Assembly (NCBI GenBank): GCA_017540825.1
Contig: JAFYAH010000051.1
Location: 363-64,362, forward strand
Reading direction: 5' to 3'
DNA length: 64,000 bases
Source: Candidatus Methanomethylophilaceae archaeon
GTDB taxonomy: Archaea; Thermoplasmatota; Thermoplasmata; Methanomassiliicoccales; Methanomethylophilaceae
Part shown: positions 35-35,093 of the stretch, piece by piece
Layout of the letters: each line of letters begins with the position of its first letter
Position numbering within the stretch: the first letter of the stretch is position 1
Translations under genes and position numbers: made by a program
Notes under the pieces: generated by a model
What the model saw: only the letters and a program-made list of their open reading frames with translations
Told to the model about the DNA's origin: nothing
Database searches by the model: none

Positions 35-643
35 TCATCGGTCTGGCTCCCAGATGCAGTAGAGAACGGCGTCATTGTTGATTTTATAATCCTGTCCGTT
101 GAGATATGTCGGCGCCGTGGCATACGGATCGGCGGAGAATCCTGCTATGTGGCATCCGTTCTTATAGAAACCATACGTGTTCAGGGTGTCATGGCCGCCT
201 TGAGCGAAACGCTTCGTACAGTACGGCATGTACTCGATTATGTGGTCGTCGGCATCATAGTTGCCGTCGTCGCCGTTTCCGTAGATGGTCAGGGAGCAGG
301 GATTGGCCTTTATGTCCTGGATGATGGACACGGACATCGGCGCCGAGTATTCCCAATGGCTGCCTATGACGATTCCGAGGAAATAATCGTTGACTTTCTT
401 CTTGAACACGGCGGTGAAATCGTCATTGTTCAGCAACGTTCCGGTTTTGAATTCTCCATTGTCGCAATCCACGAAGGCGGCGAAGCCAGGCTCGACCGTG
501 CGCGTCTCGCTGGAGCTGTCGTTACTGTAATGGAATGCCTGGTTGAAGAGGCCGATGTTCCTGTTAGAATGGTCAGAGACGCTTATGTCGTGAAGAGCAT
601 TTGAACCTGTACCGGCAGAGGTGTAGTCATAAAGACACCTGTA
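35..643 (-). CDS. C-terminal continuation of the 644..1360 reading frame (hypothetical secreted/surface protein). Track ORF 35..472 merely starts at an internal GTG.
   Basis: All 57 codons between TAG 644..646 and GTG 472 are open in the same frame. No ATG or TATA lies in between. Ends TGA 35..37. The tail ...TYGFYKNGCHIAGFSADPYATAPTYLNGQDYKINNDAVLYCIW resembles Listeria-Bacteroides (InlB-B type) repeats. Confidence 0.45.
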   Translation of the reverse strand, partial: YRCLYDYTSAGTGSNALHDISVSDHSNRNIGLFNQAFHYSNDSSSETRTVEPGFAAFVDCDNGEFKTGTLLNNDDFTAVFKKKVNDYFLGIVIGSHWEYSAPMSVSIIQDIKANPCSLTIYGNGDDGNYDADDHIIEYMPYCTKRFAQGGHDTLNTYGFYKNGCHIAGFSADPYATAPTYLNGQDYKINNDAVLYCIWEPDR

Positions 644-1360
644 CTATGTGCTTCCTAGATTGACGAGCTGGCCATTCACATCCAACGTGTGTATGTTGCG
701 TCCGGTAGCTGGAACGGTTTCGACAGAAAACTGCGAAGAATAGCAATTGTAGGTGCAATCGTCTTCATCGACGTAATAGTTAGCACCATATACGTTGAAA
801 CTACCCCATTCTCCACAGTCCACGTTCCGATACACGAAAGAGTCGTATTCCCAGTCTCCGGTGAAAATCTTGTCCGTTCTGGGAGGGACGATGTCGTGGG
901 AGACCCATCTGTTCATAGACAGGACGGATTTCTCCCTGCTGTCATTGTTGTCCTCGTAGCTGTAGGATGTGCGGGCGGAGGGATCGTATCTGAAGGCATA
1001 CGTCTTCCCTTCGGCTGAGAAGCAGGTGGAGTAGTCTTTGAGGTAGCTGGTCAGGCCGTAGTCGTTGAAGACTGCTATCGCCCCGATGCTCACACACGAG
1101 ATCAGGGCTTCTCTCACATCCTCATGGTCATTCTCTCTGATCCATTCGTTTCCAAACACCACGGCATATGCGTTTTCTATAGAGGAACGTTCGATTTCTT
1201 TCAAATCTCCGGTTCTCAGATCCAAAGACAACAGCTGATTGTCCAACCAATCATCGTGGGTTTCGCAGATAGGGTCGCTGTTCGTGGTCGGCTGGTCGAG
1301 GACCGCCATCGCTACGATGGATATAGCAACCACCATTATGCCGGCAATCCATATTTTCAT
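644..1360 (-). CDS. Hypothetical secreted or membrane-anchored protein, N-terminal segment ending at an in-frame TAG.
   Basis: N-terminal hydrophobic signal/anchor MKIWIAGIMVVAISIVAMAV. AT-rich TATA-like sequence upstream of ATG 1360. The stop is TAG 644..646 and the frame continues open. Confidence 0.6.
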   Translation of the reverse strand: MKIWIAGIMVVAISIVAMAVLDQPTTNSDPICETHDDWLDNQLLSLDLRTGDLKEIERSSIENAYAVVFGNEWIRENDHEDVREALISCVSIGAIAVFNDYGLTSYLKDYSTCFSAEGKTYAFRYDPSARTSYSYEDNNDSREKSVLSMNRWVSHDIVPPRTDKIFTGDWEYDSFVYRNVDCGEWGSFNVYGANYYVDEDDCTYNCYSSQFSVETVPATGRNIHTLDVNGQLVNLGST

Positions 1361-6468: not shown

Positions 6469-7218
6469 TTATGGCCAAAAAGAGCTGCCCTCGAAGCATG
6501 GCCATAGCCTGACGACCGCCCACTCCTTGAGCACGTTGCGCGCTTCGGGACCGGAGAGGCCGGAGATGAACCCCTGCATGGAAGCGGAGGCGGCCCAGTC
6601 GCCGTCGTCGGCTCCCGGGACGGCCACATGATAGACGTACTCCTTCTCGCACTCGGATGTCGCGCCGCCGTGCTCCCAGCAGACCCTGTACGTGACGACT
6701 ATGTCAAAATCCCTGGACTCGCCTAGATAGAAGCAGAAGGCGTCATCGAACTTGTGGGAATGGGGCGAGGAGGCGTCTCCCCTGGGCAGCTCGTACCTCA
6801 CCGACCAATGGTCAGGGCCTTCGTCCTTGAAATCCGTCGACATGCCGTAATGGAAGCTCGTCCCCACGTATTCCGAAGGGCTGATGCTGTCCGGGATGCG
6901 CCATTCCATCTCGAGGTATCTGAAATCGACGCCTTGGGCGGGGAACTGCACCGACGGGGCGAACCGGATGCAGCCGTCCTTGGCCGATGCCATCGTGGGG
7001 AACATGTTGAACCTGACCGGCGAATCGACCGAGAGCAGCCCGTTGAAGACCGGGCTGGAGACGCTCACGGCCTCGGCGTCCAGGACGACCTTCTCCCTGC
7101 GGACGTCCTGGTCCGGCCCCGAGAATTCCGCCACGACGGCTGCGGAAGCTACGACGACAGCGACTGAAACACGACGGCTGCGATGGCTGCGGGCTTGTAC
7201 ATGACGATTCAGAGACAT
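6469..7218 (-). CDS. Hypothetical secreted protein.
   Basis: Start taken at MSLNRHVQARSHRSRRVSVAVVVASAAVVA (basic N-terminus plus hydrophobic anchor). Ends TAA 6469..6471. No recognisable family. Confidence 0.5.
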   Translation of the reverse strand: MSLNRHVQARSHRSRRVSVAVVVASAAVVAEFSGPDQDVRREKVVLDAEAVSVSSPVFNGLLSVDSPVRFNMFPTMASAKDGCIRFAPSVQFPAQGVDFRYLEMEWRIPDSISPSEYVGTSFHYGMSTDFKDEGPDHWSVRYELPRGDASSPHSHKFDDAFCFYLGESRDFDIVVTYRVCWEHGGATSECEKEYVYHVAVPGADDGDWAASASMQGFISGLSGPEARNVLKEWAVVRLWPCFEGSSFWP

Positions 7219-8633: not shown

Positions 8634-9996
8634 ATGCAGTTCATGGACGTCGAGAGCATCGACACGGAATGGGAGGGGAACTGAAGCCCGAAGAACCTCG
8701 AGACGATAGCGGCGTTCTACAACACCGAAGGCGGACGCATGGCGATAGGCCGCAGAGACGACGGCCCGTTCATCGGCGTGGACGATGTGAAGGGGACCAT
8801 GAAGGAGATCTCGGACACCATCCGCAACAAGCTCCACATCGCATGCAGGATTCGCGCAGAGCTCGAAGGCTAGATCTGCTACATCACCATCGATGTCCCC
8901 TCGGAAACAGCATGGCCGCATTAGACGGCAGACTCTTTGTCCGCTCAGGGAACGCTACACAGGAGATCGAAGGGGACATCTCAAAAAGGCCATTCTGTCA
9001 GAGCAAGGGCTCCAGTGGCTCGACCAGACCGTGGACATACCGGTCGAAAGCCTGTCCAGAGATGCCATAGGCTATTTCATAGAGACAGGGGAGAAGGCTG
9101 GCAGGATACCGGAAGGCATCGACGGGTCCGACGTGCCTGCCATCTTGTCGAGATACCGCATCTTGAAGAACGGACGCCCGACGATGGCCGCAGTTCTCCC
9201 ATTCCATGAAGATCCATACAGCTTCAACTACGGCGCGATGGTGAAGATAGGCAGGTTCGATAGCGAACGCACGCTCCTCAGGGACGATATGGTCAGCGGC
9301 CCGATGATTGAGGTTCCCGAGAAGGCCATGCGTCTGCTGTACAGCAATTATATACCGCCGACCTACGGATATGGCGGCCTCACCGTGTCCGGGCACATGG
9401 ATTACGACTATCCTGAGAAAGCCGTCAGAGAGCTGATCGTGAATTCCGTGGTCCATATGGACTACTCCCTGCAGCAGCCGGTCGAGATCTCGGCGTTCGA
9501 CGACCGTATGGAGATGTTCTCTGCTGGAGGGCTGCCGAAAGGCCTGGCCATACCCGATCTGAAGAAACGGCACAGGTCCATCCGGCGCAACGAGACCTTG
9601 GCATCGGTGTTCTATTCCGCAGGGTATGTCGAGAACTGGGCGCAGGGCATAGCGAAAGTGATGAAAGAATGCGCCGAGAACGGCAACCCTGAGCCTGAGT
9701 TCTCGCTCGAGCTCGGCGGACTTATGGCAACCATGTACAAACGCTCACGGAACCCTGGAAGCACGATCCCCGAGCATAGCAGAAGCAGAGGCCTGGAAAC
9801 GACTCTAGACCAGCGCATCTTGGAAGCCATGTCCGGATCTGCGACGATGAGCACGAAAAGACTATCTGAAAAGCTGGGAGTCCCGTCAAGGACCATTCGG
9901 AGGCACCTTGCCCATCTTGTAGAGGCCGGCCAGATCGTCAGGGTGGGGAGCAACAGCAGCACAGAGTACGCCATAAAAGACGAACTGACCGTTTGA
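8634..9996 (+). pseudogene. Disrupted AlbA_2 (Schlafen-type) plus HATPase_c_4 putative DNA-binding/transcriptional regulator gene.
   Basis: The N-terminal AlbA_2 signature (ESIDTEWEG..NLETIAAFYNTEGGRMAIGRRDDGPFIGVDD) is broken by in-frame TGA 8682..8684 and TAG 8871..8873. Homology then jumps frame twice (AALDGRLFVRSGNATQEIEGD, then ILSEQGLQWLDQTVD...). The C-terminal 8893..9996 ORF carries the HATPase_c_4-like and wHTH part. Confidence 0.75.
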
Positions 9997-10137
9997 AAGC
10001 CCGGCCATAATGGGTGGCCGTTGAACCATCCGAGAATGAGTCGTGAACCGGTATGCCCCGCTGTGACAAACGATTCATAAGGATGCGGGCTTCACGGATG
10101 CCTGCATGCATTCCCGAGACCAAGCCTCTCGGAGCCT

Positions 10138-10440
10138 TCAGAGACGACCGACGGCCCTTCTCACCTCTTCGATATAGTCCTCGATAACCTCTCCGCCGTC
10201 CAGGATGACGTCTCCCACTACATCCAGCGCGACGGAATTGACAGCCTTCTCGAGCCTGAAGTCTGGCTTGGAACCTTCGAGGCATCTCTGGATGTATTCG
10301 ATCTCGGCCGCCTCCAAGGCCTCCGCCAGATGCTCCCAGCCCCTCTCGCGGCTTCTGCTCCCTGACTCTTCTGGCTCGGGTTCCAAAACTGCCTGCGACT
10401 CCTCGACGCTCATCATGGACGTCACCGAGCCGAGGTCCTC
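10138..10440 (-). CDS. TerB-C-like domain; in-frame continuation of 10441..12174 across TAG.
   Basis: Same frame as the upstream ORF, with only TAG 10441..10443 between them. Acidic linker, then ...EKAVNSVALDVVGDVILDGGEVIEDYIEEV resembles the TerB-C terminus. The track M is a GTG. Confidence 0.5.
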   Translation of the reverse strand, partial: EDLGSVTSMMSVEESQAVLEPEPEESGSRSRERGWEHLAEALEAAEIEYIQRCLEGSKPDFRLEKAVNSVALDVVGDVILDGGEVIEDYIEEVRRAVGRL

Positions 10441-12174
10441 CTACGCCTTTGAAACGGCGGCCATGTCGAGCTCCAGGGGCGTTTCCGGCTCGTCTCTCTG
10501 CGGCTCGTTGAGGCGGTCTATAGCCTCGTTCACGAGAGGGGTCACGTTAACTCCGAAGCACATCACCGGGTTCCGTCTGCGCCTTCCGTTGTCGGCGCGC
10601 ATATGCACAGAGCTCACGACGAAATCCATGAGAGACAACAGCTCCCTCGAGAAAGAGCCGTCTATGCGGTTCAATGACGGCATCCGGAATGTCGCCCTGC
10701 CCACGCTGAACATGCGCGGATGCACATCCTCTGTGGCTAACATCCCGTATCCCTTCAACCATCCAGCGCCTGATTCGCATTTGGACGTCAGAATCTTCGA
10801 GAACACCCTCTTGAACACAGTCCAGCACTCCTCGTACGACCCCGCAGGCGGCGAGACCTTGAGGAAGCGCCAGAAATACTCCGCTGGCAGCGGCTGCCTC
10901 TGCCCGTCTATGGCCCTTCTCAGCACAAAGCATGAAAGATCGCTATCGCTGGCAGCGACTTCGGAGGCTATTGGGATGCGCCCGACTGTTGAGGCCTCCG
11001 CCATCAGCATCGACAGGAATTCGTTCCTGTATTCAGAGCCTAGGCCGTGTACATCCGTCAGGAACGACATGATCTCCGAGAAGGCCGCGCCCTCCTTGAC
11101 CATCTCCATGCACCTAACGAGCAGGCAGCCGACGTCGAAGTCGTAAAACTTTCCTTCGAGGAGACGGTCCCTCCAGAACAAGTAGTAGTCTTTTCCGATG
11201 ATGCCCTCCGGAGTCAGGTCCACGACCTCCCAGAACACCCCTCTGTCCGACCTGGAAGCGGACACCCACTCCAGGTCGCGGATGACCGCTTCGGCTGTTG
11301 GCGACCCGTCGCATACGCCAATTATAGCCCTGCTGTCCCTGTAGAACGATGGCCGAGCCGGCGCTGGATATATCTCGATCTCCCCGTCGTCGAAGGAGAG
11401 GATTCTAAGGCCTCCAACGACGTCCTCCCTTATGTTTTCGTAACGCAATGTATCGTCTTCCATCGCCCGCTCCAGCCGATAGCAGAGATCCGGATATTCC
11501 GAGCCAGCCCCATAGCCGTCGCATACGCCTAAGACTTCGAAAAATAACTTGCTGAAGCCTTTCCAGTCCGGAGAGCGATAGCAGACGATGCGGCGAGGCT
11601 GCTCCTTAGCCGGGAGCAAGTCGAACAGGTTCAAGGATACGCTGGCCTCGTCGCGGGCGAAATGCTGCCCTATGCTCTCGCCGAACTTCTCCATGAAGTA
11701 CTGGTCGGCGATCTTGAAGGCGTGGTTCAGCCTCATGGAATTCACGGCCATGAACGAGTAGTACCCCCTCAGGCCCCTTGATAGGCAGAGATAGTCCGAT
11801 TCCAAGGAGGGGGAGAAGCGAGGCAGGAACATCTTCGTGAACACGGGCCCCATATCGATAGAATCGTAGCCACTGCTGACGAAGCTGCCACAGTAGACGG
11901 ACAGATCCCGTATGTAATCCCTGGCGTGTTCCGCAAAATTGCCGTTTCTGCTGCGGAAAAGGTACCTGTACAGCTTCTTGCGCCCCTCGTCAGTAGTAAG
12001 GCATTCCATTACCAGGAGATTGAAGTATCCCCAGTCCCCCTTTATCCTCCCCTTGTCGAGGATGGTTCTGAAATACGCATAGTAGCGCTTCTGTTCGTTC
12101 CGCATCCTGTCGCAATTAGACGGAACTTGCATTAGCTCCACATACGGGCACTTGGACGAATCCATCTCGTCCAT
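10441..12174 (-). CDS. TerB-N domain-containing protein (two TerB-N-like repeats), ending at an in-frame TAG.
   Basis: NEQKRYYAYFRTILDKGRIKGDWGYFNLLVMECL and KDYYLFWRDRLLEGKFYDFDVGCLLVRCMEMV match the TerB-N Y-x-WR...G...Y-hydrophobic-E pattern. The ORF ends ...PLELDMAAVSKA-TAG, exactly where TerB-C normally begins. Confidence 0.55.
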   Translation of the reverse strand: MDEMDSSKCPYVELMQVPSNCDRMRNEQKRYYAYFRTILDKGRIKGDWGYFNLLVMECLTTDEGRKKLYRYLFRSRNGNFAEHARDYIRDLSVYCGSFVSSGYDSIDMGPVFTKMFLPRFSPSLESDYLCLSRGLRGYYSFMAVNSMRLNHAFKIADQYFMEKFGESIGQHFARDEASVSLNLFDLLPAKEQPRRIVCYRSPDWKGFSKLFFEVLGVCDGYGAGSEYPDLCYRLERAMEDDTLRYENIREDVVGGLRILSFDDGEIEIYPAPARPSFYRDSRAIIGVCDGSPTAEAVIRDLEWVSASRSDRGVFWEVVDLTPEGIIGKDYYLFWRDRLLEGKFYDFDVGCLLVRCMEMVKEGAAFSEIMSFLTDVHGLGSEYRNEFLSMLMAEASTVGRIPIASEVAASDSDLSCFVLRRAIDGQRQPLPAEYFWRFLKVSPPAGSYEECWTVFKRVFSKILTSKCESGAGWLKGYGMLATEDVHPRMFSVGRATFRMPSLNRIDGSFSRELLSLMDFVVSSVHMRADNGRRRRNPVMCFGVNVTPLVNEAIDRLNEPQRDEPETPLELDMAAVSKA

Positions 12175-12369
12175 TTTGCGTATGAAGTCCAGCCTCTACT
12201 CCAACGGCATGACAATGGTGCCAATCGGACGAATCGCCCCGTACATGGACGAGTGATGCGGTAGCCATGAATAACAGTTGCCGTCTGAGATAGACTGCAG
12301 GAGATGTCGCAGAAAGGCCTGAAGTCGGCAGAAAGCTCTCGAGCCGCGCTGGGAGAGGCAGTATGATGA

Positions 12370-12444
12370 TGGAGCCACTGGAGGGGATCGAACCCCCGGC
12401 CTGCGGTTTACGAAACCGCCGCTATACCCCTAAGCCACAGTGGC
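12370..12444 (-). tRNA. tRNA-Thr (anticodon CGU), with encoded CCA.
   Basis: Folded by hand: GCCACTG/CAGTGGC acceptor, anticodon stem GCGGT/ACCGC with loop TTCGTAA, T arm GGGGG-TTCGATC-CCCTC, discriminator T plus CCA. 75 nt. Confidence 0.9.
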
Positions 12445-13956
12445 ACGCATAGGTGGAGCGAACCATGGTATAAAAACATGGCCCATGCTCCCTCTCTGAC
12501 CATCGAACGAACCGGCATCCTGACACCGCCGTCGCAGACGTGTGCGTCGTTCGGGAGTCTCGTGCTGAGCCGCCCTCCGCTTCAGGAACGACGGCTTGTC
12601 CTCGAACGAATCCATGAAAGCGGCGGCGAACAGCGGCATGTGGACGACCCCGCCCGCATCCACGAATATGTTGCCGTCCTCTAGCTTCACCCTGTGGGCC
12701 ACGTCGAAAACCTCGCCCACCTTGGATAGCGACGGAGAGTCCCGCTTTTTTCCCGATTTCACCTCTATGGCGGTCGCTCCGCTCGGCATCTCCACGACGA
12801 AATCTATCTCCATGCGCCCGTTGCCGTTGCTCTTCTGATAGTAGAACGTGTCGAAGCCGCTCTTGACCAGCCCCTCTGCGACAGCGTTCTCTGCAAGAGC
12901 CCCGAGATTATACGAATAATCCGCGGAATGGATCGCTATGACGGCCCCCTCGCCGTACATACGCGCGAGAAGCCCCGTGTCCGACATGTAGACCTTGAAC
13001 ACGTCGGGCTTCTTCTGACCGGCGAGGGGCAGGCTTATCTGCGAGATCCCATGGACGAAGTTGCCGTATCCTGCGTTCTTTATCCACAGGAGGTTCCCCC
13101 CGTACACATCGGCCGACTTGCGGGATCCCGCCCTGTCCTTGCCGACCTCCGAATAATGGAAGCGCTTATTGGTCTTGGACAGCTGCCCTGGGATGGATTC
13201 GAAGCACTCCATCGTCTTGACTGCGTCCATGCCGGAATTGTACCTGTTGATGTCCTGCCCCACCAGGGCCAGGATCCCTTCTTGGACTGCCATAGCTCCG
13301 TAATACGTCTCGCGGTTCTCGTTGAAGGCCTCCACCGCCGCAGGCATGCCTCCTATGATCATATATTTGCGGAACAGTGCGGCGAACCTTCCTAGGATCG
13401 CGTCCGGGACTGGAGAACGGAATCTTATGCATCTGCGGACCTCTGCGACGGAGTCCGGAGGAACCCCTTGAGACCAAAGGAACTCCTCGAAATCCAAGGA
13501 GCGCATGATGTACGGCTCCACGTATCCCATGGGAGAGAGCATGCCTTTCCTTTCCATAGAGCCTGTTCCGCTGATCTTGACGCCGAGCATCGAGCCGGAA
13601 GCGATGACCTTGAACCTCCCGTCCAGAGCAAAGAGCTTCAGAGCAGAGAAGGCCGCCTCGCAATCCTGTATCTCGTCGAAAAAGAACAGCGTATCCGACA
13701 GATCTCCGGATCCGAGAGAGCGCAGAGTGCGAATTGACAGCATTATCCCGTCTATCGAAAGGCTACGGCCCTCGAACACCGACCGGAACTCCGCGTCCTT
13801 GCTGAGATCTGCATACACATATCCGGAGTAGTTCTCCTTCGCGAAGCTCTCTATTATGAAGGTCTTCCCTGTCTGCCTCTGACCGTACACCAGAAGGGGC
13901 TTCCTGCCGTTCTCCTTCCAGTCCATCAGCCTGGCGTATGCCTTCCTTTGCAGCAT
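12430..13956 (-). CDS. AAA family ATPase (AAA_14 plus DUF4143 type).
   Basis: Walker A YGQRQTGKTF, Walker B LFFFDEIQD, and a DUF4143-like C-terminal half. An unusual tail of about 55 aa ends at a TAG that lies inside the tRNA-Thr gene. Confidence 0.8.
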   Translation of the reverse strand: MLQRKAYARLMDWKENGRKPLLVYGQRQTGKTFIIESFAKENYSGYVYADLSKDAEFRSVFEGRSLSIDGIMLSIRTLRSLGSGDLSDTLFFFDEIQDCEAAFSALKLFALDGRFKVIASGSMLGVKISGTGSMERKGMLSPMGYVEPYIMRSLDFEEFLWSQGVPPDSVAEVRRCIRFRSPVPDAILGRFAALFRKYMIIGGMPAAVEAFNENRETYYGAMAVQEGILALVGQDINRYNSGMDAVKTMECFESIPGQLSKTNKRFHYSEVGKDRAGSRKSADVYGGNLLWIKNAGYGNFVHGISQISLPLAGQKKPDVFKVYMSDTGLLARMYGEGAVIAIHSADYSYNLGALAENAVAEGLVKSGFDTFYYQKSNGNGRMEIDFVVEMPSGATAIEVKSGKKRDSPSLSKVGEVFDVAHRVKLEDGNIFVDAGGVVHMPLFAAAFMDSFEDKPSFLKRRAAQHETPERRTRLRRRCQDAGSFDGQRGSMGHVFIPWFAPPMRATVA

Positions 13957-14959: not shown

Positions 14960-15001
14960 GCTGCGCCCGATGCCGTAGGAATATAAAAGAGACTGCGGAC
15001 A

Positions 15002-17025: not shown

Positions 17026-17820
17026 ATGAAGGTGGAACTCGACGTACAGCTCGACCCTACCCTCGGCTGCGGCCAGGCCCACAGATGGAGAAAGAAGGGG
17101 GACGGGTCCTGGGAGGGCGTCCTGGGAAACAGCATAGTGGTCCTGAGGCAGGAGGAGAGCGGCATGTCGGTCGAAGGGTGCTCCGAGCGGCGCATCCTAG
17201 ACTACATGAGGGCGGACGACGACGTCGATCGCATCCTCGCGGACATCTCCAGGCGCGAGCCATACGTCGCCGACCTAATTGCGCGCTGTCCGGGCATGCG
17301 CATACTGAGGCAGGACCGCTGGGAGTGCCTGGCCACCTATCTTCTCGCTACCAACGCCAACGTCGCCCGCATAGGGAAGATGGTAGAGTCCGTGTGCGCC
17401 GAGTTCGGGACCGACCTCGGAGGAAGGTCCTCGTTCCCTACTCCGAAGCAGATCCTCGACGGGAGGGACAGGGCCTGCGTGTGCAGGCTCGGGTTCAGGG
17501 AGCCCAGGCTCATCGAGCTGGCGAAACGCGTAGAGAGCGGGGACATAGACCCGGACGCCATCGCGGAGCTAAGCTACGAGGACTGCTGCGAAGCCCTCAT
17601 CGGAATAAACGGAGTCGGCCCTAAGGTCGCCGACTGCGTAGCCCTGTTCGCATACGGACATCTCGAAGCCTTCCCCATAGACGCCCGCATCTCCAAGGTG
17701 ATGGAGATAAGATACGGCGTAACGGGCAGCTACAGGAAGGTCGCCGACGAAGGCAGAAGGATCTTCGGCCCCTATGCTGGATACGCCCAGGAGTTCCTGT
17801 ACCACAGCCAGTTCATCTGA
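17026..17820 (+). CDS. 8-oxoguanine DNA glycosylase/AP lyase (OGG1-type HhH-GPD).
   Basis: INGVGPKVADCVALFAYGHLEAFPIDARI carries the OGG1 catalytic Lys and Asp context. N-terminal LGCGQAHRW is also present. Confidence 0.75.
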   Translation: MKVELDVQLDPTLGCGQAHRWRKKGDGSWEGVLGNSIVVLRQEESGMSVEGCSERRILDYMRADDDVDRILADISRREPYVADLIARCPGMRILRQDRWECLATYLLATNANVARIGKMVESVCAEFGTDLGGRSSFPTPKQILDGRDRACVCRLGFREPRLIELAKRVESGDIDPDAIAELSYEDCCEALIGINGVGPKVADCVALFAYGHLEAFPIDARISKVMEIRYGVTGSYRKVADEGRRIFGPYAGYAQEFLYHSQFI

Positions 17821-18230
17821 CTCAGAAAAGGATATTGCAAGCATCGGCCGGTCTTCACCGGGTTGCAGGAGCATCTGGGCGACGGCTGCCCGGTCTGGGA
17901 CTCGTAGGCCTTGTCCAGGAGCCCCGACCTCTTGAACACGCCGCAGAGCCTGCACATCTCCAGGGAGAAGTCGGCGTCCTCCTCGGCGATCCTGCGCGCG
18001 GACTCCCTCAGCTCGTCCATGAACATCCTGTAGTCGGGGTCGCCCTCGTCCATGTCCGGCCTCCCGCCCCTCTTCCTCTTCATGTACTGGGAGACCGCGG
18101 CGTCGGTGACGTCGAACCTGCGCGCGACCTCGGCCTGGGACATGCCGTGGACGTTGACGAGCTCGGCCGCCATCTCGCGGCGTATCATGGGGAGGACGTA
18201 CCAGACGATGAGCTCGCAGGGGACTTTCAT
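17772..18230 (-). CDS. Predicted HTH transcriptional regulator (COG2522-like).
   Basis: MKVPCELIVWYVLPMIRREMAAELVNVHGMSQAEVARRFDVTDAAVSQYMKRKRGG, plus Cys pairs downstream. Ends at TAG 17772..17774, 49 nt inside the convergent ogg gene. Confidence 0.5.
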   Translation of the reverse strand: MKVPCELIVWYVLPMIRREMAAELVNVHGMSQAEVARRFDVTDAAVSQYMKRKRGGRPDMDEGDPDYRMFMDELRESARRIAEEDADFSLEMCRLCGVFKRSGLLDKAYESQTGQPSPRCSCNPVKTGRCLQYPFLSQMNWLWYRNSWAYPA

Positions 18231-18263
18231 GCCGACACGACCTTGATGCACCTATTAATGCCT

Positions 18264-32792: not shown

Positions 32793-32909
32793 ATGCCACT
32801 CATTAGTTCCATGTGATATAAAAGAACGGAGGCGTGCACGCACGGGTCTGCCTCCATGACGGCGACCGTCCGGGAAAGTTTTATCTCACGATACGTCCAA
32901 CGCCGTGGC

Positions 32910-33182
32910 ATGAAGGAATGCATGGACTCGGAGAACCTCCACAGGCGGCTCAAGAAGATATCGGGGCAGGTCGCGGCCGTGGACCGCATGATAGACGAGG
33001 ACGTCCCCTGCGAGGACATACTGATACAGGTCAATGCGATAAAGAGCGCCCTGCACAGCGTCGGGCAGATCATACTCGAGGGGCACATCAAGCACTGCGT
33101 GCGGAACGGGATAGAGCACGGGGACGCGGACAGGACCATAGAGGAGTTCGCGGCAGTGGTGAAGCAGTTCTCCAAGCTCTGA
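32910..33182 (+). CDS. CsoR/RcnR (DUF156) family metal-sensing repressor.
   Basis: LHRRLKKISGQVAAVDRMIDEDVPCEDILIQVNAIKSALHSVGQIILEGHIKHC carries the x-C-H-C ligand fingerprint. TTTTATCT box 31 nt upstream of ATG 32910. Confidence 0.85.
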   Translation: MKECMDSENLHRRLKKISGQVAAVDRMIDEDVPCEDILIQVNAIKSALHSVGQIILEGHIKHCVRNGIEHGDADRTIEEFAAVVKQFSKL

Positions 33183-33227
33183 TACCCCCATAGGGTACTT
33201 TATATACTCAATACCCCTATTGGGTAT
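33182..33227. promoter_or_regulatory. Two CsoR-type operators flanking the ATPase TATA box.
   Basis: ATACCC-CCATA-GGGTAC (33182..33198) and ATACCC-CTATT-GGGTAT (33211..33227), with TTTATATA (33199..33206) between them. Confidence 0.6.
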
Positions 33228-34607
33228 TTGGCGATAATATTGACCGTTATAGAAGTTATCAGGAAGAACAAAATCCAGATTGGAATGATAATTGCGTCAA
33301 TAGCACTGGTTATCACCGCAATTTTATTTCCATCCTTCAATTACATAGCCCTTATACCCGTCATGGTATGTGGGGCGCCCATACTCGTGGACGTCCTGGT
33401 GGACGTGGAAGACGGGAGGGTGTCTGCCGAGACGCTAGTCATATCAGCTATATTCGGATGCGTCATTCTCAGCGAGTACGTCGCGGCTGCGGAGATCGCA
33501 GTGATAATGTACATCGGCGCGCTCCTGGAGAAGTCCGTGACGGAATACGCCCAGATGGGCATGGACGCGCTGAGGAACCTCAAAGTAGACAGCGTCAGCC
33601 TGCTGGACGGGGGCGCGGTGAAGCAGGTCCGCACGGAGCGCGTAGGGATCGGGAGCGTGGTGCGCGTGTTCCCGGGCGGCATAGTCCCGCTGGACGGCAC
33701 CATAGTCTCCGGGTCTTCGTCGATCGACAGGTCGGCTGTGACCGGGGAATCCGTCCCTGTCGACGTGCGCGAGGGCGACGCCGTCCTCGCCGGGACCAGC
33801 AACCTCAACGGGTCCATCGACGTGAGGGTGGACCGCGTCGAGTCGGAGAGCTACGTCAGCCGCATGGCGGAGCTGCTCGAGAAGGCGGCCGCCGGGAAGA
33901 GCAGGATGGCGTCCATGGCCGACAGGGCGTCCAAATACGTCCTCTTCGGAGCCGCGGCCATCGCGATAGCGACGTTCGTGCTCACCGGCGACGTGTACCG
34001 CGCCCTGACCGTGATGGTGGTGTTCTGCCCCTGCGCGTTCGTCCTTGCGACGCCCACCGGGATCATGGCGATGGCCGGCAACATGGCCAGGCACGGCATA
34101 CTCCTGAGGGACGCGTCCGCGATGGAGGGCATGGCAAAGGCCAAGGCGGTGCTCTTCGACAAGACCGGCACCCTCACGGAAGGGAGGATGACCTCCCTGG
34201 GGTTCACCGGCACGGACGACGTCGACGAGAGAGAGGTGGAGGGGATGGTGTCCGCCCTGGAGTCCCGCTCCGACCACCCTCTTGGGAAGGCCCTGTCGGC
34301 CAGCGCCCCGAAGGGTGCTGTGGAAGGGTTCGAGAACATCCCCGGACAGGGCGTCGTCGGGACGGTCGACGGCGTCCGCATGGCTGTGGGGAACCGCAGC
34401 CTGATGGAACGCCTCTGCCCGGAAGGCCTGGAAGCCGCGTCCGAGGCCGCGAGCAGATCCTCTGCGGTCACCGTCCTCGTAGGGATGGACGGCAGGACCG
34501 TGGGGTTCATGAGCCTTGCGGACAGCGTTAAGAAGGGCTCCGCCGAGGCCGTGTCCGATCTGAAGGACTCCGGAGTGACCACCGTGATGCTCACTGGGGA
34601 CTCCTAG
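33228..34607 (+). CDS. Heavy-metal P1B-type ATPase, N-terminal 459 codons up to an in-frame TAG.
   Basis: TGES actuator motif, CPC in the TM helix (VVFCPCAFVLATP), phosphorylation site DKTGTLT, and MLTGDS. No N-terminal HMA domain. The start may be TTG 33228 (leaderless) or ATG 33285. Confidence 0.85.
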   Translation: MAIILTVIEVIRKNKIQIGMIIASIALVITAILFPSFNYIALIPVMVCGAPILVDVLVDVEDGRVSAETLVISAIFGCVILSEYVAAAEIAVIMYIGALLEKSVTEYAQMGMDALRNLKVDSVSLLDGGAVKQVRTERVGIGSVVRVFPGGIVPLDGTIVSGSSSIDRSAVTGESVPVDVREGDAVLAGTSNLNGSIDVRVDRVESESYVSRMAELLEKAAAGKSRMASMADRASKYVLFGAAAIAIATFVLTGDVYRALTVMVVFCPCAFVLATPTGIMAMAGNMARHGILLRDASAMEGMAKAKAVLFDKTGTLTEGRMTSLGFTGTDDVDEREVEGMVSALESRSDHPLGKALSASAPKGAVEGFENIPGQGVVGTVDGVRMAVGNRSLMERLCPEGLEAASEAASRSSAVTVLVGMDGRTVGFMSLADSVKKGSAEAVSDLKDSGVTTVMLTGDS

Positions 34608-35093
34608 AGGGCTGCGACAGAGGTGCGCGATAGCCTGGGCCTCGACGACCTCGTGTGGGAGTGCACCCCCGAGGCCAAGATGAGGACGGTGGAGCACTTC
34701 GAGTCCGAAGGCCCGGCCTGCATGGTGGGTGACGGCATCAACGACGCACCCGCCCTGCGGAGGGCCTCCGTGGGGATATCGATGGGGTCCATAGGAAACG
34801 ACCTCGCCGTCACGTCCTCCGACGTCGTGTTCCTGAACGACGACGTTGGGAAGCTCCCTGGGCTGCTCAGGCTCAGCAGGCGCTCCGTCAAGACGATAGC
34901 GGCGGGCCTCGCCATGTCGATGTGCGTGAACATCGCAGGCACCGCCCTGGCGATGGGAGGGCTGATAGGGCCCGCGGCCGGAGCGCTGATCCATAACGGG
35001 GGGTCCCTCGCGGTCGTCCTGCTGACGGCGTCCCTGCTGTGGAGCCCGGACCTGACCCGCTCGCCAAACCATATCTACCCGGATCCGGAATAA
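34608..35093 (+). CDS. Same P1B-type ATPase, C-terminal part following the in-frame TAG.
   Basis: Same frame. Reads RAATEVRDSLGLDDLVWECTPEAK, the hinge VGDGINDAPAL, then the final two TM helices with HNGGS. Ends TAA 35091..35093. Confidence 0.8.
   Translation, partial: RAATEVRDSLGLDDLVWECTPEAKMRTVEHFESEGPACMVGDGINDAPALRRASVGISMGSIGNDLAVTSSDVVFLNDDVGKLPGLLRLSRRSVKTIAAGLAMSMCVNIAGTALAMGGLIGPAAGALIHNGGSLAVVLLTASLLWSPDLTRSPNHIYPDPE

Follow-up and report, generated by a model that had tools for sequence, protein, structure and literature searches.

Two adjacent reading frames of an uncultured methanogenic archaeon, deposited as separate hypothetical proteins, probably constitute one SngA-like gene of about 690 codons that carries two pyrrolysine (Pyl) codons and has been mis-annotated as two proteins. 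The locus lies on the reverse strand of a 64,000-nucleotide stretch of contig JAFYAH010000051.1 from Candidatus Methanomethylophilaceae archaeon, hereafter referred to as the window, and its two annotated proteins are exact matches to MBR6205139.1 and MBR6205138.1 of the same organism. According to the translation and the alignment of homologs, the proposed complete coding sequence (CDS) would occupy positions 10138..12210, with 690 codons followed by TGA, codons 5 and 590 being TAG; translation might instead begin at the ATG at 12246-12244 on the same strand. The downstream TAG (10441..10443, reverse strand), which is codon 578 in the 678-aa numbering used below for residues and is here the proposed pyrrolysine codon, had been reported in an earlier note made from the sequence alone. 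The key point missed in that note is that the organism belongs to a pyrrolysine-decoding lineage.

The family Methanomethylophilaceae is placed in the order Methanomassiliicoccales (Thermoplasmatota), the 'seventh order' of methanogens, and pylTSBCD was encoded in all three of the genomes of this order analysed by Borrel et al. (2014; PMC4153887). In Ca. M. alvus, TAG terminates only 1.6% of the genes, and 16 TAG-interrupted non-methyltransferase Pyl proteins were predicted (PMC4153887). Of 15 expressed candidate proteins of M. alvi, 12 were shown by proteomics to contain Pyl at TAG, where no other residue was detected, and Kivenson et al. (2024) proposed a 'Genetic Code 34' in which TAG always stands for Pyl (bioRxiv 10.1101/2024.09.30.615893). 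In the characterised members of this lineage, UAG is a sense codon decoded by tRNA-Pyl. Recoding of internal TAG codons was described in 2014 and received proteomic confirmation in 2024 (PMC4153887; bioRxiv 10.1101/2024.09.30.615893); the type of recoding described here is already known, and the value of the present case lies mainly in annotation.

When the sequence was reread, the 577-aa open reading frame (ORF; 10441..12174, reverse strand) ended in ...LELDMAAVSKA-TAG, with the TAG at 10443-10441, followed by the codons E D L G S, by GTG at 10425-10423 and by TSMMSVEES..., the frame remaining open to TGA 10140-10138. The next ORF had been described as beginning in the same frame five codons after the TAG, and both this description and the reported peptide strings were correct. 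The open frame beyond the TAG comprises 100 codons (10141..10440), which encode the remainder of a conserved helix (EDLGSV), an acidic disordered linker and a folded C-terminal module. From the stop-triplet frequencies of the window, the chance of a frame this long following a stop is about 0.09, which makes it only slightly improbable; the arrangement is regarded as more than chance because homologs align across the TAG and because the tail scores as coding. The TAG itself is real. Positions 10001-12300 match 11 independently assembled contigs (L001-L011) at 99.96-100% identity, TAG included; these contigs, which are identical or one base apart, represent different metagenome samples and different projects, and the presence of the TAG in all of them means that it is not an assembly error. 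Relatives between approximately 40% and 100% identity were not found: a word-indexed homolog search returned the protein itself only, and two scans of genome contigs yielded none and then one locus.

The TAG is located in the most conserved motif of the family, A-E-x-D-L-x-x-V. In an alignment of 19 sequences, Glu predominates in the TAG column, some sequences having Q, R, S or D instead; the column is preceded by the invariant A577 and followed by the conserved E579, D580 and L581 and the invariant V584. A577 and D580/L581/V584 all stand before any possible restart codon, and the GTG that had been taken as the start of a 95-aa ORF is itself the family's invariant Val. At the nucleotide level, the window reads GCG TAG GAG GAC CTC and the syntenic relative at locus L012 reads GCC GAG GAG GAC CTC.

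With the read-through product as the query, 132 relatives were retrieved in an exhaustive phmmer search. Among them, P0007 (723 aa, E 2e-89, query 3-672, 31% identity), P0008 (732 aa, E 3e-81, query 4-676), P0010 (694 aa, E 2e-54, query 18-672) and P0011 (696 aa, E 7e-52, query 18-676) each give one uninterrupted alignment that crosses the TAG. All full-length homologs consist of one ORF (approximately 650-780 aa), and two relatives in other metagenome-assembled genomes (MAGs) of Methanomethylophilaceae are annotated as unsplit proteins of 694-696 aa. At neither TAG site of the gene are the homologs interrupted. The expectation that TerB-N and TerB-C normally reside in a single polypeptide is borne out by the unsplit homologs, and no homolog was found to be naturally encoded as two genes. 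Two short sequences were considered as naturally split homologs and rejected, one being a fragment at a contig end (L020) and the other carrying a frameshift at a run of N (L021). In the latter (L021, 3600..3800), the apparent split into 572 and 111 aa is due to the scaffold N run, which shifts the frame.

The affiliation with the TerB-N/TerB-C family, which had been proposed without database searches, was upheld. TerB_N (PF13208) was matched by 52 of the 61 aligned homologs and TerB_C by 16 of the 61 in Pfam, and in an hhalign comparison the profile of the closest relatives matched that of 17 TerB_N-positive proteins end to end over 671 columns, with a probability of 100% and an E value of 6e-61. 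The profile search that had been suggested for the read-through product gave a divided answer. The PADLOC profile of SngA matched residues 554-673 across the TAG (E 5.1e-11, profile positions 375-525 of 528), which agrees with the claim that the downstream 95-100 codons encode the C-terminal part of a TerB-C-type domain. Pfam gave no match at E<=1 in the 577-aa part, and for the tail alone TerB_C (PF15615) stayed below the threshold (E 0.85, 10.3 bits), with P0017 and P0023 passing the Pfam threshold for TerB_C in the aligned region. Judged from these alignments, the protein can be assigned to TerB_N through homology rather than through a direct Pfam score, and its C-terminal region can likewise be assigned to TerB_C; both domains occur in one polypeptide in this family, and would do so in the window gene only if the TAG is read through.

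The position of the TAG relative to these domains differs from the earlier description, which had placed it at the junction of TerB-N and TerB-C. TerB-N-like motifs were located at residues ~25-60 (NEQKRYYAYFRTILDKGRIKGDWGYFNLLVMECL; 11995..12102, reverse strand), which align with Pfam TerB_N matches such as that at residues 40-74 of P0017, and at residues ~326-360 (GKDYYLFWRDRLLEGKFYDFDVGCLLVRCMEMV; 11095..11199, reverse strand), which align with the TerB_N match at residues 329-382 of P0023. The region homologous to TerB-C and to the C-terminus of SngA begins near residue 556 and extends over residues 554-677 (10144..10515, reverse strand), as delimited by PADLOC SngA and by the TerB_C match of P0017 (601-720, corresponding to query ~556-677); it spans the TAG, which lies approximately 20 residues inside it. 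An AlphaFold2 model of the 678-aa version, calculated on the alignment, reached a mean pLDDT of 83.9 and a pTM of 0.72. In this model, residues 571-590 form two short helices flanking the TAG codon (pLDDT 73-86), residues 591-610 form a disordered acidic linker (pLDDT <50) and residues 611-678 form a well-folded C-terminal module (pLDDT 88-96). Foldseek found nothing in the PDB below E 0.7 for this model; no solved structure resembled it, and none of a TerB-N/TerB-C-like protein is available.

The tail behaves as an intact coding sequence. Its invariant residues W613, N646, D655, G661 and Y667 are all present, and its TGA stop coincides with the C-termini of the homologs. Among the six frames, the coding score of the tail is best in its own frame (-5.59, with an average of -5.24 and a standard deviation of 0.27 for the genes), and the GC1/2/3 values are 0.67/0.39/0.75. 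In the terms of an in-frame TAG with an extension of >15 aa and >30% identity on both sides, the extension amounts to 100 aa and the identities to 31% (P0007) and 36% (the L012 ortholog), this Category 1 comparison being made with metagenomic proteins and not with the UniProt set of Kivenson et al.

A second in-frame TAG was identified in the same gene (12196..12198, reverse strand), eight codons upstream of the annotated ATG at 12174. From ATG 12210, the upstream frame reads M-P-L-E-TAG-R-L-D-F-I-R-K-M-D-E-M-D-S-S-K-C-P-Y-V and is collinear with the N-termini of homologs, e.g., PLETRLRLIEEIKRLDNTRCPYV and TLSERLEFIREIESLSSSKCAYV. The homolog-derived pattern [PST]L[ES]xR[LI]xx[ILFM] has a single occurrence in the six frames of the window, at this TAG. 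As no ATG, GTG or TTG is found between the second TAG and the annotated ATG, the conserved RLDFIRK segment is translatable only by read-through.

The same feature was observed in other genes of the window. A P-type heavy-metal ATPase (33228..35093, forward strand) is interrupted by an in-frame TAG at 34605-34607, directly after MLTGDS, such that the two halves of its HAD domain lie one on each side of the TAG. Translated through the TAG, the protein can be aligned to CopA (3rfu, E 2e-80) without a break, with a Lys at the position of the TAG; the part encoded downstream of the TAG includes the essential GDGxNDAP motif and the final transmembrane helices. A gene for a CsoR-like metal repressor is located just upstream of this ATPase (32856..33182). 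In a gene for a secreted or membrane-anchored protein (35..1360, reverse strand), TAG 644-646 is codon 239 and follows a 238-aa ORF with an N-terminal membrane anchor; the 202-codon in-frame extension scores as coding, and 98% of the 441-aa read-through product is matched by the homolog P0186 (457 aa), which has Pro at the TAG position. From these alignments, this is a probable third pyrrolysine gene of the window. Internal TAG codons thus occur in 3 of ~50 window genes, as against ~1% reported for M. alvus. In addition, the syntenic ortholog on L012 (5777..8044), from a related archaeon, which has Glu at the window's TAG site, has a TAG of its own elsewhere (6977-6979, codon 401), with homology on both sides; it is annotated as two proteins, of 400 and 323 aa, that lie in one frame. 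The gene order at this locus is AP endonuclease, DUF4143 ATPase, tRNA-Thr and SngA-like gene.

When the window was called with TAG as a sense codon, 44 ORFs were obtained (including a few antisense artefacts), of which 37 ended with TGA and 7 with TAA, and no gene of the window was interrupted by TGA, TAA or a frameshift. In a scan for coding sequence flanking stops, two TAGs ranked among the top four stops with coding on both sides, which is not decisive alone; the TGA and TAA cases that ranked high were abutting operon genes or antisense ORFs.

On these grounds, the UAG at the reported site would have arisen by a GAG to TAG change of a Glu codon within the A-E-x-D-L-x-x-V helix of the TerB-C region. 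Pyl would be inserted there, and translation would continue to the family's normal C-terminus at TGA, and the second UAG, codon 5 from the true start, would be read likewise. We infer both the identity of the inserted residue as Pyl and an efficient read-through. A Pyl-bearing tryptic peptide, A-O-EDLGSVTSMMSVEESQAVLEPEPEESGSR, is predicted across the reported TAG. No PYLIS-like element was detected when the 117 nt from the TAG onward were folded (z = -0.6); according to the literature a PYLIS element is not needed, and the lack of one here agrees with current views.

Several observations weigh against this interpretation. Neither pyl genes nor tRNA-Pyl were found within the 64-kb window, in which ARAGORN identified a sole tRNA, that for Thr, and we infer the Pyl machinery of the organism from its family label and from the literature on the order. 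The near-identity of the 11 contigs leaves no population signal of selection on the tail, and a nonsense mutation of very recent date would give the same picture. Shine-Dalgarno (SD)-like motifs stand ahead of the first ATG of the tail (10422..10442, reverse strand), namely AGGAGGA at 10442-10436, which overlaps the TAG, and GGTGA at 10426-10422, 5 nt ahead of ATG 10416. Furthermore, two genes appear to end only at TAG. The first encodes the DUF4143 ATPase upstream of the SngA-like gene: its L012 ortholog stops with TAG at the conserved C-terminus ...FLKRR, and the window gene has GCG in place of that TAG and runs for 47 non-coding-like codons to a TAG inside the tRNA-Thr gene. The second encodes a helix-turn-helix (HTH) regulator (17772..18251, reverse strand), which is ~25 aa longer than its homologs of 118-135 aa, with an extra tail that looks non-coding and ends in TAG; reading beyond this TAG would add 429 codons that lie antisense to the OGG, GntR and ABC genes. 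These two genes make it probable that the release factor retains some activity at TAG, in which case part of the focal gene's translation may end there in a truncated product.

The alternative that survives best, which we consider unlikely, is a recent nonsense mutation that left a 577-aa protein truncated inside its TerB-C region, or a pseudogene, the downstream frame being an undecayed relic. All copies are identical, so the lesion could be young; elsewhere in this genome, TAG apparently serves as the stop of the DUF4143 and HTH genes; and the gene sits at a fast-evolving, island-like spot, with 36% identity to its L012 counterpart as compared with 81% for its neighbour. However, a nonsense origin would need four independent lesions, all of them TAG, in three genes within 64 kb, together with a fifth in the L012 ortholog, whereas no TGA, TAA or frameshift lesion is present anywhere. 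One of the genes hit is the P-type ATPase, which would be cut within its catalytic domain, and Pyl insertion at codons of this kind has been documented for the lineage. The conservation of every invariant residue of the tail also argues against a relic.

It is improbable, to our judgement, that the UAGs serve as conditional switches at which tRNA-Pyl and the release factor compete. The genes that still seem to end at TAG would fit such a competition. If it were true, the full-length SngA-like protein with its two UAGs, the metal-exporting ATPase and the secreted protein would be made only with a highly active Pyl system, and a defence-type protein would be tied to methylamine metabolism. In a more extreme variant of this idea, the frame might be kept so that read-through couples or fuses the DUF4143 and SngA-like proteins. 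From the DUF4143 ORF through the tRNA to the SngA-like ORF, the frame is free of TAA and TGA in two diverged genomes, namely in the window (spacer 12175..12429) and in L012 (3986..5776), and read-through of the DUF4143 gene would give a 763-codon in-frame run through the tRNA gene. The spacers measure 255 and 432 nt, both multiples of 3, and the shuffle estimates for such a frame are 0.17 and 0.017.

A true split into two genes, with a stop at the TAG and a restart at GTG 10425 or ATG 10416 to yield proteins of 577 aa and 92-95 aa that may associate, is very unlikely. Gene callers and GenBank annotate two proteins, and the SD-like motifs are spaced as in the operon-internal genes of the window (GGTGA, then 4-5 nt, then the start codon). 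In the statement that no promoter or ribosome-binding site (RBS) separates the two ORFs, the part on the RBS was wrong, since the RBS-like AGGAGGA and GGTGA are present; no A/T-rich archaeal TATA-like box was visible in the 180 nt upstream. The bases of these motifs are, however, codons for conserved residues (E-D and S-V-T); they are probably by-products of those codons, with internal initiation being conceivable. Against two genes also stand the lack of any naturally split homolog, a cut inside a conserved helix that would leave E579, D580 and L581 untranslated, the invariant Val encoded by the proposed GTG start, and the upstream TAG at codon 5, which would go unexplained. Finally, a sequencing or assembly error has practically no chance of being the source of the TAG, as its recurrence in 11 contigs from different samples and projects refutes it. 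Among these explanations, we favor a single gene with two pyrrolysine codons.

The window has a G+C content of 59.5% and a gene content typical of archaeal housekeeping, including A-type ATP synthase subunits, Cdc6, primase, TiaS, gyrase and ThiC. In many of its genes, a TTTATATA-like box stands ~25-35 nt ahead of the start codon and an SD motif is lacking (e.g., 14960-14999, 32800-32855 and 33188-33227), a pattern suggestive of transcripts with a short leader or none. Within operons, genes are instead preceded by GGTGA or GGAGG 4-5 nt ahead of the start.

The surroundings of the SngA-like gene differ from this core. The gene for tRNA-Thr (CGU; 12370..12444, reverse strand; ARAGORN, Rfam 64.3 bits) is located directly upstream, a position kept in L012, and the DUF4143 ORF shares its last codons with the 5' end of the tRNA gene. 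The upstream neighbor is the AAA_14/DUF4143 ATPase (12430..13956, reverse strand), identified by Pfam and matching the PADLOC candidate PDC-S01 (E 1e-107); it is syntenic in L012. The convergent downstream neighbor (8893..9996, forward strand) encodes a HATPase_c_4 and winged-HTH protein according to Pfam, with partial matches in PADLOC. The stretch 8893..13956 has GC3 values of 0.70-0.75, compared with 0.85-0.95 in the flanking core genes, and the identities to the L012 counterparts are 36% for the SngA-like gene and 81% for the adjacent DUF4143 ATPase. The stretch is probably a variable defence-type islet at a tRNA gene, containing three defence-flavoured genes.

By analogy with SngA of Shango, the protein probably plays a defence-related role in sensing or scaffolding, as judged from homology and the islet-like context near the tRNA only. 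Shango is an anti-phage system of bacteria, and SngA is its component with a TerB domain (Millman et al. 2022, bioRxiv 10.1101/2022.05.11.491447). No match to SngB or SngC was found with Pfam or PADLOC among the neighbors of the window gene or next to close relatives, and the locus is for this reason not filed as a Shango system. A canonical Shango-type operon was observed only at a distant homolog (P0017/P0177 cluster) on L019 (7001..12578), where genes for a TerB_N/TerB_C protein of 723 aa, a BrxC/BrxD-like ATPase of 427 aa and a DEAD/Helicase_C protein of 709 aa follow one another with overlapping stops and starts. On L013 (5601..11046; also L014 and L015), P0007, the closest full-length homolog, is preceded by a 754-aa tandem paralog with an A-E-E-D-L motif and followed by a Cas4-like PD-(D/E)xK nuclease, with a DUF4011/AAA_11 helicase and a PLD nuclease nearby; this arrangement may represent a distinct SngA-like gene set.

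The immediate consequence of the favored reading is a correction of annotation: MBR6205139.1, MBR6205138.1 and 12 unannotated N-terminal codons would form one protein, and the P-type ATPase and the secreted protein of the window would be mis-split in the same manner. An SngA-like defence-type protein would be added to the predicted pyrrolysine proteins, and a denser use of internal TAG than in M. alvus is suggested for this uncultured rumen/gut methanogen lineage. The MAGs of the family would best be gene-called with TAG as a sense codon, and the genes that seem to end only at TAG may serve as test cases for complete versus ambiguous recoding.

Compared with SngA of Shango (PADLOC PDLC03958), the window protein has the same architecture and is collinear end to end with TerB_N/TerB_C proteins. 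The direct PADLOC SngA match, however, covers only the C-terminal fifth of the window protein, the host of the window is archaeal, and the partners differ, being a DUF4143 ATPase in the window and a tandem paralog with a Cas4-like nuclease on L013.

With regard to recoding, the Pyl in the tRNA-His guanylyltransferase of Methanosarcina, which is attributed to neutral evolution as cited in Kivenson et al., is likewise a TAG replacing an ordinary codon at a tolerant position and read by the Pyl machinery already present, the column of the window site accepting E, Q, R, S and D; protein and lineage are different, and the window site lies in a conserved motif, making its neutrality uncertain. The closest likeness is to the non-methyltransferase Pyl proteins of M. 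alvus, M. alvi and other Code 34 organisms. The SngA-like TerB-N/TerB-C family does not appear in the main text of Kivenson et al., which makes no mention of TerB (bioRxiv 10.1101/2024.09.30.615893). As in those proteins, the TAG stands at a position with a normal residue in relatives, that is, as a lineage-specific singleton, and is not accompanied by a PYLIS-like structure. The present case comes from the same archaeal family and likewise concerns an ordinary gene with a 'Category 1' TAG and a mis-split annotation; it differs from M. alvus in having two TAGs in one gene and a higher local density of TAG genes, the Pyl being here a prediction from sequence.

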